The notes beneath the pieces are model-generated. The model worked only from the letters and a program-made list of their open reading frames with translations, did no database searches and had not been told where the DNA came from. Positions 5,645 to 23,395 of a DNA stretch of 52,524 bases are shown here, one piece after another. The DNA is from Candidatus Heimdallarchaeota archaeon. GTDB lineage: Archaea; Asgardarchaeota; Heimdallarchaeia; Heimdallarchaeales; Heimdallarchaeaceae. Location: assembly GCA_021399345.1 (NCBI GenBank), contig JAAFKI010000014.1, positions 1 to 52,524 on the forward strand. Direction: 5' to 3'. The translations under genes were made by a program, and so were the position numbers. Position 1 is the stretch's first letter. Every line of letters begins with the position of its first letter.

Positions 5645-6571
5645 TTATTGCTGTTCACTCATGAATTTTTTTAATCTGTCTAATTCTTTTAACATCTCTT
5701 TTCGAAGAGCTGCTATTGATGTGCTCTTAGCAAACAAATCCCCTTCTCCTTCTCCTCCTGCTGGAGCAGCTGCTGGAGGCGCTACTACACCTGGTGGTTT
5801 TGGAGTTGGAACAGTTGGCGCTGGAATTGAAGGTGTTGTAGCTGGTGCACCAGTTGGTATTGGTGTTGGCATTGGTGGACTTGGAACTGCTGTAGGTGGT
5901 GGTGTCTTACCCACACCTGGAGGTGGTGGAGGGGCTGCTTTTCCAGTTACTGGGGGTGCAGCTGGTGATGGTGGTGCTGGGGGTGTTGCAACAGCTTTTC
6001 CCCTTTTCCTCTTTTTTGTTTTTGGAGGCTTAACCGGTTTAACGGCTAGTGGGGGAGCTGGGGGAGTTGGAGGTGCAGTTGCTGGAGTAGCTGAAGGAAC
6101 ATCTATTTTCTCTTCACCTTTTATTTTACTCAGATAATCTCCCTGCATCTTCTTTAGTTCCTCTTCAAGTTGAGAAACTTCAGCTTCTCTTGCTGTCTTT
6201 TCAATCTCATCTTCAATTTTCTTAACATCTGAAGCGTATCTTACTGATAGTCTACCAAACACTGATTCACTGATATCCTTCTTCCTATGAGCACCAGACA
6301 AAGCTTGCTGTGCTGCCTCGAACTTTGTTTTCTCAATTTTAAGAATAGCAATACGTTCTGAAGGAGGAATATCAGAAGGTGTGGGTAGATCTGAATCCAT
6401 ATCTAAATCAAGGAGAGAAGGGCCTTCTTTCTTTCGATATACTCTTGTTGTAATGAACACTACAAGTGCACTTAGAAATGTAAAAATGACTAAAAGGTAA
6501 ATTAGCATCTTCACTCCTGGATCAGTTAAACTTGCTGGAGGTAAATTCTCAAACCAATCTATAAGCGACAT
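5645..6571 (-). CDS. Membrane-anchored coiled-coil, proline-rich protein of unknown function
   Basis: One N-terminal TM helix, coiled coil, Pro/Ala/Thr-rich region of roughly 110 aa with a basic patch, C-terminal amphipathic helix. Confidence 0.8.
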   Translation of the reverse strand: MSLIDWFENLPPASLTDPGVKMLIYLLVIFTFLSALVVFITTRVYRKKEGPSLLDLDMDSDLPTPSDIPPSERIAILKIEKTKFEAAQQALSGAHRKKDISESVFGRLSVRYASDVKKIEDEIEKTAREAEVSQLEEELKKMQGDYLSKIKGEEKIDVPSATPATAPPTPPAPPLAVKPVKPPKTKKRKRGKAVATPPAPPSPAAPPVTGKAAPPPPPGVGKTPPPTAVPSPPMPTPIPTGAPATTPSIPAPTVPTPKPPGVVAPPAAAPAGGEGEGDLFAKSTSIAALRKEMLKELDRLKKFMSEQQ

Positions 6572-6839
6572 ATCCTTGCCTCTGAATTATTATTGTTATA
6601 ATCCTTTTATTTGTTTCTCTGTCTATTAAGTTATTAGATTATACTTAATAAACTCTGTCAAAGTGTCCAATTAAAAAAGAAGATAATATCTAGAAAATAT
6701 TGTCCCTTTGTGTGAACAACATTGCATTTTTTCGATAAACAACCGTTTTAATGCTGAGGAGGGAAAACTTGTTCAATCTTACCTATGAAGAAAAAAAACT
6801 AGAACAACTTTCTTCAGCAAAGAAAACTAAAAAGAGAGT

Positions 6840-7177
6840 ATGCGAGTAAGAATAGGATTAGCTGCAGAATTAAAGGGAGTACCTTCAAGTACCTTGCGAA
6901 GATGGGAAAAAGAGGGAAAACTACTTCCAGTTGAAAGAACCATGAGAGGACACAGAAGATATAAACTAACCCAATTGGAAGGGAGAAAAGAGAACGGAGA
7001 AGGAGAAACAAAGGAAAGAATCGTACTGGGTTATGCGAGAGTGAGTGCAACTAAACAAAAGAAAGAACAGGAAAGGCAACAAGAGCAACTAAAGACCTTT
7101 GCTCAGCAGCAAGGAGGGAAGCTTAAGAAAGTGTATACCGATATTGCTTAAGGGACGAACGAGCAGAGAAAAGGTTT
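6840..7177 (+). pseudogene. tnpA: IS607 TnpA serine recombinase with a nonsense codon and loss of the C-terminal half
   Basis: MerR-like HTH (GVPSSTLRRWEKEGKL...GHRRY), catalytic YARVS; YTDIA-TAA-GTNEQRKGL where DIASG is expected; homology is lost after 7177. Confidence 0.88.
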
Positions 7178-7244
7178 ACACCACCACCACAATGAGAGTT
7201 TGTCGAGTTTAAATACCATTTTGGGGATTAGATACTGAGACACA

Positions 7245-9173
7245 TTGGTCACACAGACAACAAGCAAACTACAAACACTTCTTCCCACCGCATCAAAGGG
7301 AGTGATGAGAAGTTATCAAGTAGTGCTCAACTGTGCAGACCAATCCCAACGAGAAGAGATTAATCAGAGGATAAGAACACTAGAAGACCAACAGGAGCAA
7401 CTACTAACGCCACAAGTGATTACACAAGCGGTGGAACTCTACAGAACCAATCCGAAAGAAGGATTCTTCACTCGTCAACTCTGCAAAGCAGTAGGACAAA
7501 GTCCGAATATTGCAGAAAGTGCCTTTCATTGGCTGTATATAGCTATCAAAGGAAAAATAGACAAGGAGAAGAAAGTACAAGGTTTACTCAACTTTCTGCT
7601 AAAAAACCCTCTACAATTGATAGAATGGCTGATTTTTGGTCGTTCCCCTTACACTGAACGGAGTCTAGAGAACTTTTGGAGACTAAAGAGAAGATATATT
7701 ATCAATCTTCTTACTAGTACCAGAACACAAACCGATTCCTATTGGAGAAAAAAACATTACTCCAGCTATTTTGCTGACTTCCTAGAATTCAACACCCTCC
7801 TCCCAACATGTTCGCAATCTGAAGTACTTCAAGCTCTAGATGATACGCTGTTTTATCAACAGCACGAGTTTTCCCTTATCCCACAACTGACCAAGAATCA
7901 ACAAGCGTTTCTGAAGAAACTCAAGCTCTTAAAGAAAGAACAACAGATAGTTGTCCCTTTTCTCACCTCATGGATAAATAGTCCTCAAGATTCTCGATGG
8001 AAAAGTCTCAAAGATCTCGCAGAACAACTAGCAGCAATAATAGGTAAACCTTCCCGAAAACTCTTTTCAGCCGTTAGGCAGATAATCGTTTTCACACTCT
8101 TTGATCAGTACATGCAGAGTGTCCCTCAGTTAGTCAAGGTGCTACCTATAGCTAATGTTGTTCCCCTACCATTTAAACGAAAAAAGAAAGGAAGATTACC
8201 AATAAAATTGTTAATGAAGAAAAACTATGTTATCACCCGCCAAGGGAATGCACAAGAATTGACTGACCAGATTAAGAAGCAAGGAAGGATTGAACTCGGT
8301 TTTCCAAGTAAAGGAAAGCAGAAATTAACTGCTCAAGTTCATTTTCCACTGAAGGTAGTAGAATATATCAGAAATGGTGCCAGCATCAAAGTGTTCCAAG
8401 TGAGCAGTGGACAAGCGCCAAGTTATAAACCTCGGGTGGATGTGGTACTCGAAGGAGCGCATGCTTGTTTCCATTCAGCTAAACTTCTTCACCGCTATCT
8501 TGCAACGATTCCTGCAAAGAAATCGTCTATCCTAGGACTAGATATCAACCGCTTAGGACAATACATGATAGTGTTTAACATCCCTGTCTCTCTCCCTCCA
8601 GATTTACTAAACTTAGCAGAGCAATATGATCATCTCAGTACAAAAGTTATTGATGAACTCAACCGAGGGTTCCTCCGTAAACGAAAAGAGTATGATTCCC
8701 GAGGTAGTTGCAAACTTAAATCTGAGCTCAATCGTGTCTATACTCGTCGTCATCGCCTTCTTTGCGAAATCACTCGTCGTCTTCCCCATTTTCTCGCAGC
8801 TGTTCTGGTGAAAAAACAGACAAAAGTACTCAAGATTGAACGTTTAACTGCTGATCCCACTGGCACTAAAGGTGCCTTAGCTAAAGCTATTTACACCATG
8901 CCTGACAGTTTGTTCATTTACAAAAAAGCTGTGTGGTTAGCTTCTTTGGAATTAGGTTATGATGTCCAGTTAGAGACAGTTCCTCCTTATCACACCAGTA
9001 CCGTTCATTACCGGTGTGGGGGTATTCTTGCTCGTCAAAAAGGTCAATATGATGTTGCTCCATGCAAGAAGTGTGGTCAACAGGTCAATACACATAGTAA
9101 TGCCGCTCAGAATATCGCTTCCCTCAAAGGTATCTTTCTTCCTCCCGATTCCTTCCCCTCACCGCACGTGTAG
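7245..9173 (+). CDS. tnpB: Large TnpB-like RNA-guided RuvC protein (start may be ATG 7305 rather than TTG 7245)
   Basis: RuvC-I ILGLDIN (D433), RuvC-II LKIERL (E532), PPYHTS, Zn finger HYRC...CKKC, RuvC-III NTHSNAAQNI. Confidence 0.85.
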   Translation: MVTQTTSKLQTLLPTASKGVMRSYQVVLNCADQSQREEINQRIRTLEDQQEQLLTPQVITQAVELYRTNPKEGFFTRQLCKAVGQSPNIAESAFHWLYIAIKGKIDKEKKVQGLLNFLLKNPLQLIEWLIFGRSPYTERSLENFWRLKRRYIINLLTSTRTQTDSYWRKKHYSSYFADFLEFNTLLPTCSQSEVLQALDDTLFYQQHEFSLIPQLTKNQQAFLKKLKLLKKEQQIVVPFLTSWINSPQDSRWKSLKDLAEQLAAIIGKPSRKLFSAVRQIIVFTLFDQYMQSVPQLVKVLPIANVVPLPFKRKKKGRLPIKLLMKKNYVITRQGNAQELTDQIKKQGRIELGFPSKGKQKLTAQVHFPLKVVEYIRNGASIKVFQVSSGQAPSYKPRVDVVLEGAHACFHSAKLLHRYLATIPAKKSSILGLDINRLGQYMIVFNIPVSLPPDLLNLAEQYDHLSTKVIDELNRGFLRKRKEYDSRGSCKLKSELNRVYTRRHRLLCEITRRLPHFLAAVLVKKQTKVLKIERLTADPTGTKGALAKAIYTMPDSLFIYKKAVWLASLELGYDVQLETVPPYHTSTVHYRCGGILARQKGQYDVAPCKKCGQQVNTHSNAAQNIASLKGIFLPPDSFPSPHV

Positions 9174-21559: not shown

Positions 21560-22468
21560 CTATAGTTTTAGTTCTTCAGCTTTTATTTGAGTAGGTTCTT
21601 CCGATAATATTACTCTACGTTTAACTTTGAGAGAATTAACAAAGTAAACCTTTCCACCAACTTCTGAACGACGACCAATAACAACATCGTATCCTTTTAC
21701 GTCACCAGTAACTGATGTAGCTCTAATATCCACGTTATTTTTTGCAAATAAGTTACCGCCAATTTTGTATGGGTATTTGACAAAACCACCTATTCTTAGA
21801 TTTAACCATCTTTTCCACCCTTTCAAACCTAGAGTTACATTTTCTCCTACTAAGTTTCCTTTAACATTAGCTGCTCCCTCTACTGTAACATCTTTTTGTG
21901 ATAGTAGATTTCCACCTACTCCTATGGATCCTGAAGATTTTAATCCATTATTTGTTTGTAGATTCTTACCAACTTTGAAAGATCCAGATGATTTAGCGAA
22001 ACCTTGTACAGTAGTTTCTCCATCAATCCTTGCTGAACCTGAAAATTTAGCATCACTGCTACCAATGAAATCTCCACCAACCTTGAAAGATCCAGAAGAT
22101 TTAACTGGACCTAATATGTTAGCATCTTGACCAATTTTTGCAGAGCCACTAAACCTAGCAGAAGATTCACTCACAAGTCCTCCAGATATACCAAAGGATC
22201 CAGAACTTCTAACTGTACCCAAAGAAGTCAAATTTCCTTCACCCTTTAATGATCCTGTGGATTTTATTCCATTGCATTTAAAATCTCCACCAAGTTTTCC
22301 TGAACCTGAAATTTTGACAAATTTAGGGATAATTCCACTGGATATACTTCCTGACCCAGAGACTTTGACTAAATCTTCTGTTTCCTTTAAACTCCCAGCA
22401 GAGCTGATTGTAGCTCTCTGTTCAACATTTTCGTTTGTTTCTTTAATTGTTTTTTCCATTATTTTCAC
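21560..22468 (-). CDS. Bactofilin-like (polymer-forming) beta-helix protein
   Basis: Regular x-SGS-x-x-(I/V)-x-G repeats over the whole length. Confidence 0.75.
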   Translation of the reverse strand: MKIMEKTIKETNENVEQRATISSAGSLKETEDLVKVSGSGSISSGIIPKFVKISGSGKLGGDFKCNGIKSTGSLKGEGNLTSLGTVRSSGSFGISGGLVSESSARFSGSAKIGQDANILGPVKSSGSFKVGGDFIGSSDAKFSGSARIDGETTVQGFAKSSGSFKVGKNLQTNNGLKSSGSIGVGGNLLSQKDVTVEGAANVKGNLVGENVTLGLKGWKRWLNLRIGGFVKYPYKIGGNLFAKNNVDIRATSVTGDVKGYDVVIGRRSEVGGKVYFVNSLKVKRRVILSEEPTQIKAEELKL

Positions 22469-22489
22469 CTTTCTGTTTCATTATCTTGA

Positions 22490-23395
22490 TTACAATCTTA
22501 GTTTTTCATGGCTTATTTTTACTGGTTCATTAGCCAAACCAGCTCTTTTGTCAACATCTATGTAATCGACATAGAAAACAATACCTTCTACTTTGGTATA
22601 TGGTCCGATTTCTACTTTGAGACCTTTAACATCGCCCTCTACAGTAGTGTTGGCTAAATATACTTCACCAGTACCTAAAACATGCCCTTCAACTATAGAT
22701 TTTTTGAGACTTCTAAATCTTAGACTAAGGAAATCTTTTCCCTTATTGATATGAATATCATCACCTACCACGTCTCCTGCTACTAAAATTCGCCCTGCTA
22801 CTTCAACAATTCCTTGAGATAATAGATTACCTTCAATTCTAGCAGAACCTGAGAACTTTGCACCGCTTTCAGCTTGTAAGATTCCTCCAGTAGCAAAACT
22901 ACCAGCAGTTACAATTCTGCCTTTGAGAATAGTTTCTAGGCCTATTTTTGCTGAACCTGCGAATTTTGCATCTTGATCTCCATGTAAGAAACCAGCGCAC
23001 TTAAAAGATCCAGCAGTACTGATGTCTCCATGGGCAGTAATGTTCCCATTACTCTTTAGAGAACCAGCGGATTTCAAGTTGTTACATTCAACATCATTAT
23101 CAATTTTTCCAGAACCTGCGATGCGAATATCCTTTCCAATATGACCACCTGAGATTTTAGTTGATCCAGCAACTGAAAGAGATTTATCAGTTGATACCTT
23201 AACTCCTGCAGTATAAATCTGAGAAGCTTCTTTGTGTTGTTCAAAATTTTCTTTAGCATCATCAAGCTTTTGGAGATAACGATCTTTCAATTCGACATAG
23301 TTTTGTTTATCGATTTCTCCATTGTCAAACCTCTTTTCCAAGAGTTCTAATAATTCTTCATACATTTTGACTTCGTTTTTAGACAATTGTATCAC
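22490..23395 (-). CDS. Bactofilin-like beta-helix protein with an N-terminal SHOCT-like helical domain
   Basis: LEKRFDNGEIDKQNYVELK followed by AGS/SGS beta-helix repeats; paralog of 21560-22468. Confidence 0.75.
   Translation of the reverse strand: MIQLSKNEVKMYEELLELLEKRFDNGEIDKQNYVELKDRYLQKLDDAKENFEQHKEASQIYTAGVKVSTDKSLSVAGSTKISGGHIGKDIRIAGSGKIDNDVECNNLKSAGSLKSNGNITAHGDISTAGSFKCAGFLHGDQDAKFAGSAKIGLETILKGRIVTAGSFATGGILQAESGAKFSGSARIEGNLLSQGIVEVAGRILVAGDVVGDDIHINKGKDFLSLRFRSLKKSIVEGHVLGTGEVYLANTTVEGDVKGLKVEIGPYTKVEGIVFYVDYIDVDKRAGLANEPVKISHEKLRL

Follow-up and report, generated by a model that had tools for sequence, protein, structure and literature searches.

A membrane-anchored Asgard protein with a proline-rich arm and a conserved terminal helix: a candidate actin-binding adaptor

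Background

The question raised by this locus is what is bound by a 308-aa protein that joins a membrane anchor to a proline-rich arm and a C-terminal helix, and that is encoded in a stretch of 52,524 nucleotides from a Candidatus Heimdallarchaeota archaeon (contig JAAFKI010000014.1 of assembly GCA_021399345.1; this whole stretch is called the window). Asgard archaea crawl and build protrusions with actin, the only known regulators of which are profilins and gelsolins, and both filament nucleation and membrane tethering are open questions in these organisms (PMC9433394, PMC13716822); the filament-nucleation machinery has yet to be found (PMC9433394). A 21-residue helix that is kept in most Asgard families, on membrane-anchored as well as soluble heads, must bind something central. 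If the partner is actin, the protein would supply the missing link between actin and the membrane, and if it belongs to the ESCRT system, the protein would be the first membrane-anchored Vps4 recruiter in Asgard cells.

Gene and protein layout

The reading frame was confirmed as a real gene with features beyond chance (Table 1); matches to the 308-aa protein were obtained in 29 of the 30 genomes of its own family, and 84 more homologues were found in the protein database. All features listed by an earlier note on this DNA (N-terminal transmembrane helix, helical or coiled-coil head, proline linker and basic patch) are present in the translation. The terminal helix is present too, but five residues (304-308) come after the segment that the note had quoted as the chain end. 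The hydrophobic stretch reaches a Kyte-Doolittle 19-mer maximum of 2.86, and the structure model has a membrane helix at residues 18-47, helices at 70-96 and 102-153 (pLDDT 91-95), a region at about 155-278 that is disordered (pLDDT no higher than about 50) and the end helix at 280-307. Prolines make up 43 of the 118 residues of the arm, the longest run being five. The key positions of the end helix are I286, L289, R290, E292, M293, L294, E296, L297, R299, L300, K301, F303 and M304, and its motif occurs once in the source genome.

Table 1. Coordinates of the gene, the parts of its product and the MIT-domain Vps4 gene (positions in the window unless a contig is given).
Feature	Position	Strand	Remarks
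Whole gene, 308 aa	5645..6571	minus	ATG start; protein P0001
Single transmembrane helix, residues 22-41	6449..6508	minus	Followed by R43, R46, K47, K48; predicted N-out, C-in
Helical hairpin, residues 70-125	6197..6364	minus	Steadiness-box/CdvA-like type, common among Asgard proteins
Extension of the hairpin's second helix, residues 126-153	6113..6196	minus	Probable coiled coil
Disordered Pro/Thr/Ala-rich arm, residues 157-274	5750..6103	minus	
Basic patch, residues 184-192	5996..6022	minus	Lineage-specific
Conserved amphipathic end helix, residues 280-304	5660..5734	minus	
Vps4 with MIT domain	C123:65773-66924		

The Pfam scan of the protein and its family members gave no significant match, and the best likeness to the OAR motif (E = 0.08, in 6 of 26 members) was taken as chance. 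Foldseek with the full model returned nothing at E ≤ 0.001, the ESM Atlas returned just unnamed archaeal clusters with scores of 0.8 or less, and a sequence search of the PDB using the helix profile gave no match. Scans for promoters and terminators stayed at chance level. A single sample gave metatranscriptome contigs that map within the ORF at 5895-6563, the runs having been picked with this stretch and an origin from DNA being possible. Searches of the literature outside subscription on Asgard archaea in combination with WH2, polyproline, VASP, the steadiness box or MIM1 found no account of the family.

A 158-aa ORF on the opposite strand is probably a shadow of the proline codons, and the same shadow overlies the Loki-type homologue. 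That homologue, in a closed Loki-type genome of 6.0 Mb (L268:1495-2367, minus strand), is overlapped by an opposite-strand ORF of 230 aa, which makes the locus a trap for gene callers.

Genomic context

The helix gene adjoins rpiA and a PINA ATPase gene in many Asgard families. Directly upstream of it in the window, at 6840-9173, lies an IS607-like element composed of a MerR-resolvase TnpA, whose frame ends after 103 aa, and a 642-aa TnpB-like gene. A contig of another run departs from the window sequence at position 6755; the insertion is thus apparently missing in that strain.

The expectation that actin, profilin and ESCRT would be encoded in the genome was borne out, actin, profilin, gelsolins, ESCRT-III and MIT-Vps4 all having been found. 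In the source genome (G000), about 12 kb separates canonical actin from two ESCRT-III genes and Vps4 (C123:51711-66924), with genes for a V/A-type ATPase subunit, prefoldin and roadblock proteins nearby, and both ESCRT-III proteins of this contig end in a proline-containing stretch and a helix. The source genome holds a second actin (85% identity) on C50 and a divergent actin on C125.

Membrane topology and helical head

Lysine and arginine are more numerous after the transmembrane helix than before it in 106 of 108 single-pass carriers (mean 3.7 vs 0.6); the 308-aa protein has four basic residues behind the helix and one ahead of it. Given these positive-inside counts, and since the hairpin finds its best match in the cytoplasmic domain of Asgard ribophorin I, the arm and the end helix are predicted to be cytoplasmic, and by the same counts all of the protein after the transmembrane helix would face the cytoplasm. 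The possibility, raised in the earlier note, that the proline-rich region is extracellular is thus disfavoured.

That best sequence match of the hairpin is a profile match to 8WHN (E = 5.6e-4). Its structural matches at Z 9.1-9.5 include 8WHN, the ESCRT-I headpiece and CdvA, and are tied with unrelated hairpins, as are those to 6VME, 2F66 and 9S9G, for the comparison with the Vps23 core and PF18822 (Z 9.1-9.3). Pfam matches were below cut-off and confined to single members, CdvA being matched at E = 2e-4 in 1 of 28. The SHOCT/CdvA-like coiled-coil head that had been proposed is retained as a resemblance to the steadiness-box/CdvA type. The same type of hairpin recurs on ribophorin I and on bactofilin-like proteins; because of this occurrence, and because ribophorin I is the best sequence match, it is not regarded as ESCRT-specific. 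Many steadiness-box fusion proteins have been described in Asgard archaea (PMC11188069), and the arrangement of anchor, proline arm and end helix is absent from the text of that paper. The extension of the second helix (residues 126-153), helical in the model, is 89% identical within the family and 15% outside it. Elsewhere in the window, at 21560-23395, are two tandem bactofilin-like genes, the second of which matches this Asgard hairpin weakly at its start.

Proline-rich arm

The arm is 37% identical within the family, and at least 20% proline precedes the end helix in 91% of 215 carriers. Runs of at least five prolines were found in 18 of 146 carriers outside the family, and the 308-aa protein has one run of five. 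The profilin of the source genome (C108:12303-12659, L284:3804-4160) was missed by Pfam profilin and recovered with the Odin sequence as query, and its best PDB match is the Odin profilin 5ZZA. Profilins of Odin, Loki and Heimdall LC2 are reported to be without polyproline binding, and other Asgard profilins bind at 0.3-3 mM (PMC8410842). The idea of a polyproline platform for profilin lost ground on two counts, the scarcity of long runs outside the family and the closeness of this profilin to a reported non-binder. Going by the structure model, the arm would mainly be a long flexible spacer; profilin loading on it is possible but weakly supported.

The basic patch, which had been likened to the basic region of WASP-type proteins, is 18% identical within the family, where it occurs in 43 of 69 carriers, and was seen in 2 of 146 carriers outside. 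With this distribution it is not part of the ancestral design, and the likeness was given up.

Terminal helix

Within the family the end helix is 99% identical, against 62% for the membrane helix and 72% for the hairpin. In other families of the class it is 73% identical, every other part being at or below 29%, and across Asgard families it retains 50-76%, so the terminal helix is conserved as had been supposed. R290, M293, L294 and L297 are conserved in 33, 42, 38 and 36 of 42 sequences, respectively. A class-level profile of the helix gave matches in 270 of 400 Asgard genomes, mostly one each, and recovered the motif in other Asgard classes, again C-terminal behind a proline arm. A wider profile added 35 of the 41 genomes of family f31 at E ≤ 0.01; this family is probably Thorarchaeia, and its proteins are orthologues of the same layout that sit beside rpiA and the PINA ATPase gene like the source gene and have Gln in place of a conserved helix Arg.

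The end helix lies within 12 residues of the C-terminus in 96% of carriers and is borne by at least four kinds of head, comprising the single-pass hairpin, a hairpin with about 10 membrane passes (family f5, same gene position), two soluble types and mini-proteins of 80-90 aa. One soluble head, a coiled coil of about 55 residues without the hairpin, occurs in Loki-type, Odin-type and other genomes and usually adjoins an unannotated 90-aa gene, and most families have either the membrane form or this soluble form. In families f3 and f4 the mini-proteins occur as a second copy next to a ribosomal L11-like gene, and their helix stops before the third leucine. A library-wide search yielded 114 clusters with the helix, including tandem copies, fusions to Ras/Roc GTPases and a fusion to a TIR domain. 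In view of the several heads, the tandem copies and the Ras/Roc fusions, the helix behaves as a short portable binding motif, and as far as sequence comparison can tell it is a docking motif carried on a flexible arm.

Individual loci illustrate this range. P0086 (L283:5001-6035) is a soluble protein of 344 aa with three tandem helix copies 42 residues apart, encoded near a RadA-like gene, and the mini-proteins at L059:4877-5143, L116:4909-5151 and L117-L119 have 80-99 aa, a hairpin-like head and a truncated helix. The 90-aa neighbour, a protein of about that length without a Pfam match, is found at L094:7538-7825, L111:3056-3325 and 14 other loci. A relation of the soluble heads to coils of the WAVE/WASH complex was considered and set aside as coiled-coil noise (CCDC53, E = 0.012 in just 2 of 18 members). 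G000 also encodes a second protein with a coiled coil, a proline arm and a conserved end helix of different sequence (C184:44014-44883; L137:4015-4884, minus strand); it scores 13 bits on the helix profile, was found only in its own family when used as query, and lies about 1.5 kb from a UEV/E2-like gene.

Tests of membership in known actin-binding families

R290, M293, L294 and L297 fall on what we take to be the helix register of WH2. The strand of WH2, defined by its LKK(T/V) motif (PMC9433394), is lacking: a leucine followed by two basic residues and Thr or Val was found in 0 of 215 carriers, the following residue being F, I, L, V or Y and continuing the helix. The linker to the leucine is two residues long vs about five in WH2, and the leucine lies 3 residues past the helix core vs about 6. 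Pfam WH2 (PF02205) did not pick the end helix at E ≤ 10 in five genomes and gave no match in the member scans. For these reasons, and since f31 has Gln for Arg, the end helix is, on its sequence, not a WH2, and the earlier note's assignment of the tail to WH2 with an LKK(T/V) end, for which it had looked to conservation among homologues, is withdrawn. Among the features of WASP and WAVE, an acidic tail with Trp is missing, the basic patch is all but confined to the family and the N-WASP C helix scores at background. No EVH1 domain was detected, the head being all-helical without beta strands in the model and without a Pfam match. By these comparisons the family appears to fall outside WH2, WASP and Ena/VASP proteins, to fit MIM1 in part, and to work like a motif-bearing adaptor. 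What survives of the membrane-tethered cytoskeletal or ESCRT adaptor originally envisaged is a tethered adaptor that faces the cytoplasm, as the positive-inside counts and the conserved helix suggest; its WH2 and WASP-like layout does not.

Candidate partners of the end helix

We infer, tentatively and with not quite even confidence, both the partner and the mechanism of a single-pass membrane adaptor whose end helix binds canonical Asgard actin. Actin leads because the helix is conserved at the rate of actin (50-76% identity across families vs 67-81% for canonical actin) and not at that of the Vps4 MIT domain (27-36%); the end helices of ESCRT-III are 19-38% identical outside the family. It leads also because the helix was not found in four families with divergent actin, two of which keep ESCRT-III. 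In these families (f22-f25), a helix search of 14 genomes (G283-G296) at E ≤ 0.01 gave no match, and the best actin, where found (12 genomes), is 51-57% identical to canonical actin; the genomes are 66-91% complete, and the absence of the helix may represent a single loss. ESCRT-III is retained in f22 and in f24, where its end helices are altered, while f25 gave ESCRT-III matches in 0 of 5 and MIT matches in 0 of 4. Counting against actin, three single-genome families with canonical actin gave no helix match either, and the neighbours in the gene's own lineage are housekeeping genes. Linkage to an actin-family gene favours actin in family f20, where, in 5 of 5 tested genomes, a divergent actin-family gene is found downstream of the soluble form (adjacent in one, one gene away in four); in the other families no actin gene was seen beside the helix gene.

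A further argument, weak and chosen after the fact, is the likeness to the F-actin-binding helix of VASP (sequence 259-278 from PMC10340426), which reaches 11.7 bits with the helix profile, exceeding 99.9% of the charged-helix background (p about 0.001, post hoc), and shares L289, E292, M293, L297 and R299, with an hhalign probability of just 2%. The helices of ITPKA and N-WASP C stayed at background level (p 0.3 and 0.1), and the Snf7-type ESCRT-III tail of the source genome scores nearly as high as VASP (9.7 bits), which speaks against actin. Of the short F-actin-binding motif of the Lifeact/ITPKA type (Val, Leu, Phe and Glu at positions 1, 4, 8 and 9), I286 and L289 fit, and positions 8 and 9 are Met and Leu instead. 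The precedent of arcadin-2, which binds crenactin through a terminal helix carried by an unstructured linker (PMC5173319), lends actin support. The proteins named in the texts of the Lokiactin co-immunoprecipitation papers are profilin, gelsolins, an Arf GTPase and BAR proteins; this family is not among them, and membrane proteins are flagged there as under-represented.

If actin is the partner, the transmembrane helix, recognisable from sequence, would anchor the adaptor in the membrane, and the cytoplasmic hairpin and coiled coil would probably oligomerise or bind other hairpin proteins. The end helix would fold upon binding a partner that evolves slowly and is shared by most Asgard cells, taken here to be canonical actin, whose hydrophobic cleft would be gripped by a continuous helix, unlike in classical WH2; this grip is modelled on arcadin-2, the F-actin-binding helix of VASP and Lifeact-type motifs. 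The membrane form might then tether actin filaments or filament ends to the membrane. It is a speculative extension, which we think improbable, that proline arm and end helix are an ancestral Asgard module for anchoring or elongating actin, present here in a membrane form and elsewhere on soluble heads, and that the F-actin-binding and C helices known from Ena/VASP and WASP proteins go back to a helix of this kind.

An ESCRT adaptor, in which the hairpin would serve as a steadiness box anchored in the membrane and join ESCRT-I-like partners, while the end helix would be an Asgard-type MIM1 recruiting the MIT domain of Vps4, is considered distinctly unlikely. M293, L297, L300 and K301 do fit the MIM1 register (consensus PMC5141497), with three hydrophobic residues spaced 4 and 3 and a final basic one, so that this part of the earlier MIM1 proposal held; at its two charged positions (acidic at the start, Arg before the second Leu in the eukaryotic consensus) the end helix has R290 and E296, each of the opposite charge. 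Asgard ESCRT-III end helices likewise have Glu where eukaryotes have Arg, the Snf7-type tail of the source genome ranks 4 among 2801 C-termini on the helix profile, though at less than 7 bits, and 35% of 49 ESCRT-III tails lie above the 95th background percentile, a roughly sevenfold enrichment of the class. ESCRT-I headpieces and CdvA among the best structural matches of the hairpin, and the many described steadiness-box fusions, point the same way. Yet the hairpin is not ESCRT-specific and is missing from the soluble coiled-coil forms, I286, L289 and L294 are conserved although they lie outside MIM1, and the helix of the mini-proteins ends before the third leucine. Moreover, the end helix is far more conserved than the MIT domain or true ESCRT-III tails, none of the recurring neighbours was recognised as an ESCRT gene, and no helix match came from family f24, which does have ESCRT-III and MIT-Vps4.

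The near-invariance of the helix across the phylum fits a constrained partner better than self-assembly, which we judge improbable: the helices would bundle in parallel over a short length, as in the tetramerisation domain of VASP, and so cluster the arms, function residing in the heads or the proline arm. Its hydrophobic spacing (0, 3, 7, 11, 14, 18) repeats every 11 residues, as is found in coiled coils that are straight or right-handed, its first 14 positions have a pattern in common with the helix of the VASP tetramer (1USE; 4.5 bits, p about 0.03), and the extreme C-terminal location behind a proline region is that of VASP. The helix is, however, only about 21 residues long vs 38 in VASP (343-380), Pfam VASP_tetra (PF08776) does not pick it at E ≤ 10, and truncated versions of 13 residues and tandem in-chain copies are hard to square with an oligomeriser. 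Docking to some other conserved partner, be it a small GTPase, a roadblock or longin protein, the 90-aa neighbour or the membrane surface, would explain the fusions of the motif to Ras/Roc GTPases, the 90-aa gene next to most soluble coiled-coil forms (16 loci, several families) and the amphipathic character and basic end of the helix. We hold this unlikely: beside the membrane-anchored forms no such 90-aa gene was seen, the invariance of side chains like those of M293 and E296 points to a pocket in a protein more than to lipid, and no specific candidate emerged.

Comparison with known systems

With WH2 proteins (WASP, WAVE, WIP) the 308-aa protein shares the helix register and a proline-rich region ahead of the helix, and differs from them in lacking the L-basic-basic-T/V strand and a C/A region and in its non-conserved basic patch. 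Ena/VASP proteins (PMC10340426, 1USE) have the same order of targeting head, proline-rich region and short helix, and five key helix positions match; unlike them, the 308-aa protein is membrane-anchored and has neither EVH1, nor a G-actin-binding WH2-like motif, nor a separate tetramer coil, and the Pfam and hhalign matches are not significant. The MIM1 of ESCRT-III (PMC5141497, PMC7240154) is likewise a C-terminal amphipathic helix, with three hydrophobic residues and the final Lys in register, and Asgard ESCRT-III tails share the Glu, whereas the end helix here has two extra conserved turns, an extra conserved leucine, no ESCRT-III core and conservation far above that of MIT. The steadiness-box/CdvA hairpins (Vps23/TSG101 head, CdvA, 8WHN) are also helical hairpins of about 60 residues with a similar turn motif, but the matches are weak and tied with unrelated hairpins, and the 308-aa protein is without UEV or any other ESCRT-I domain. 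Arcadin-2 of Pyrobaculum calidifontis (5LY3; PMC5173319) sits in an actin gene cluster and is a proven binder, while the end helix of the 308-aa protein is a putative one without recognised sequence homology to arcadin-2. The two archaeal proteins have in common a conserved terminal helix on a non-conserved unstructured linker, and arcadin-2 binds the hydrophobic groove of actin without an LKKT strand, the very strand that the end helix lacks.
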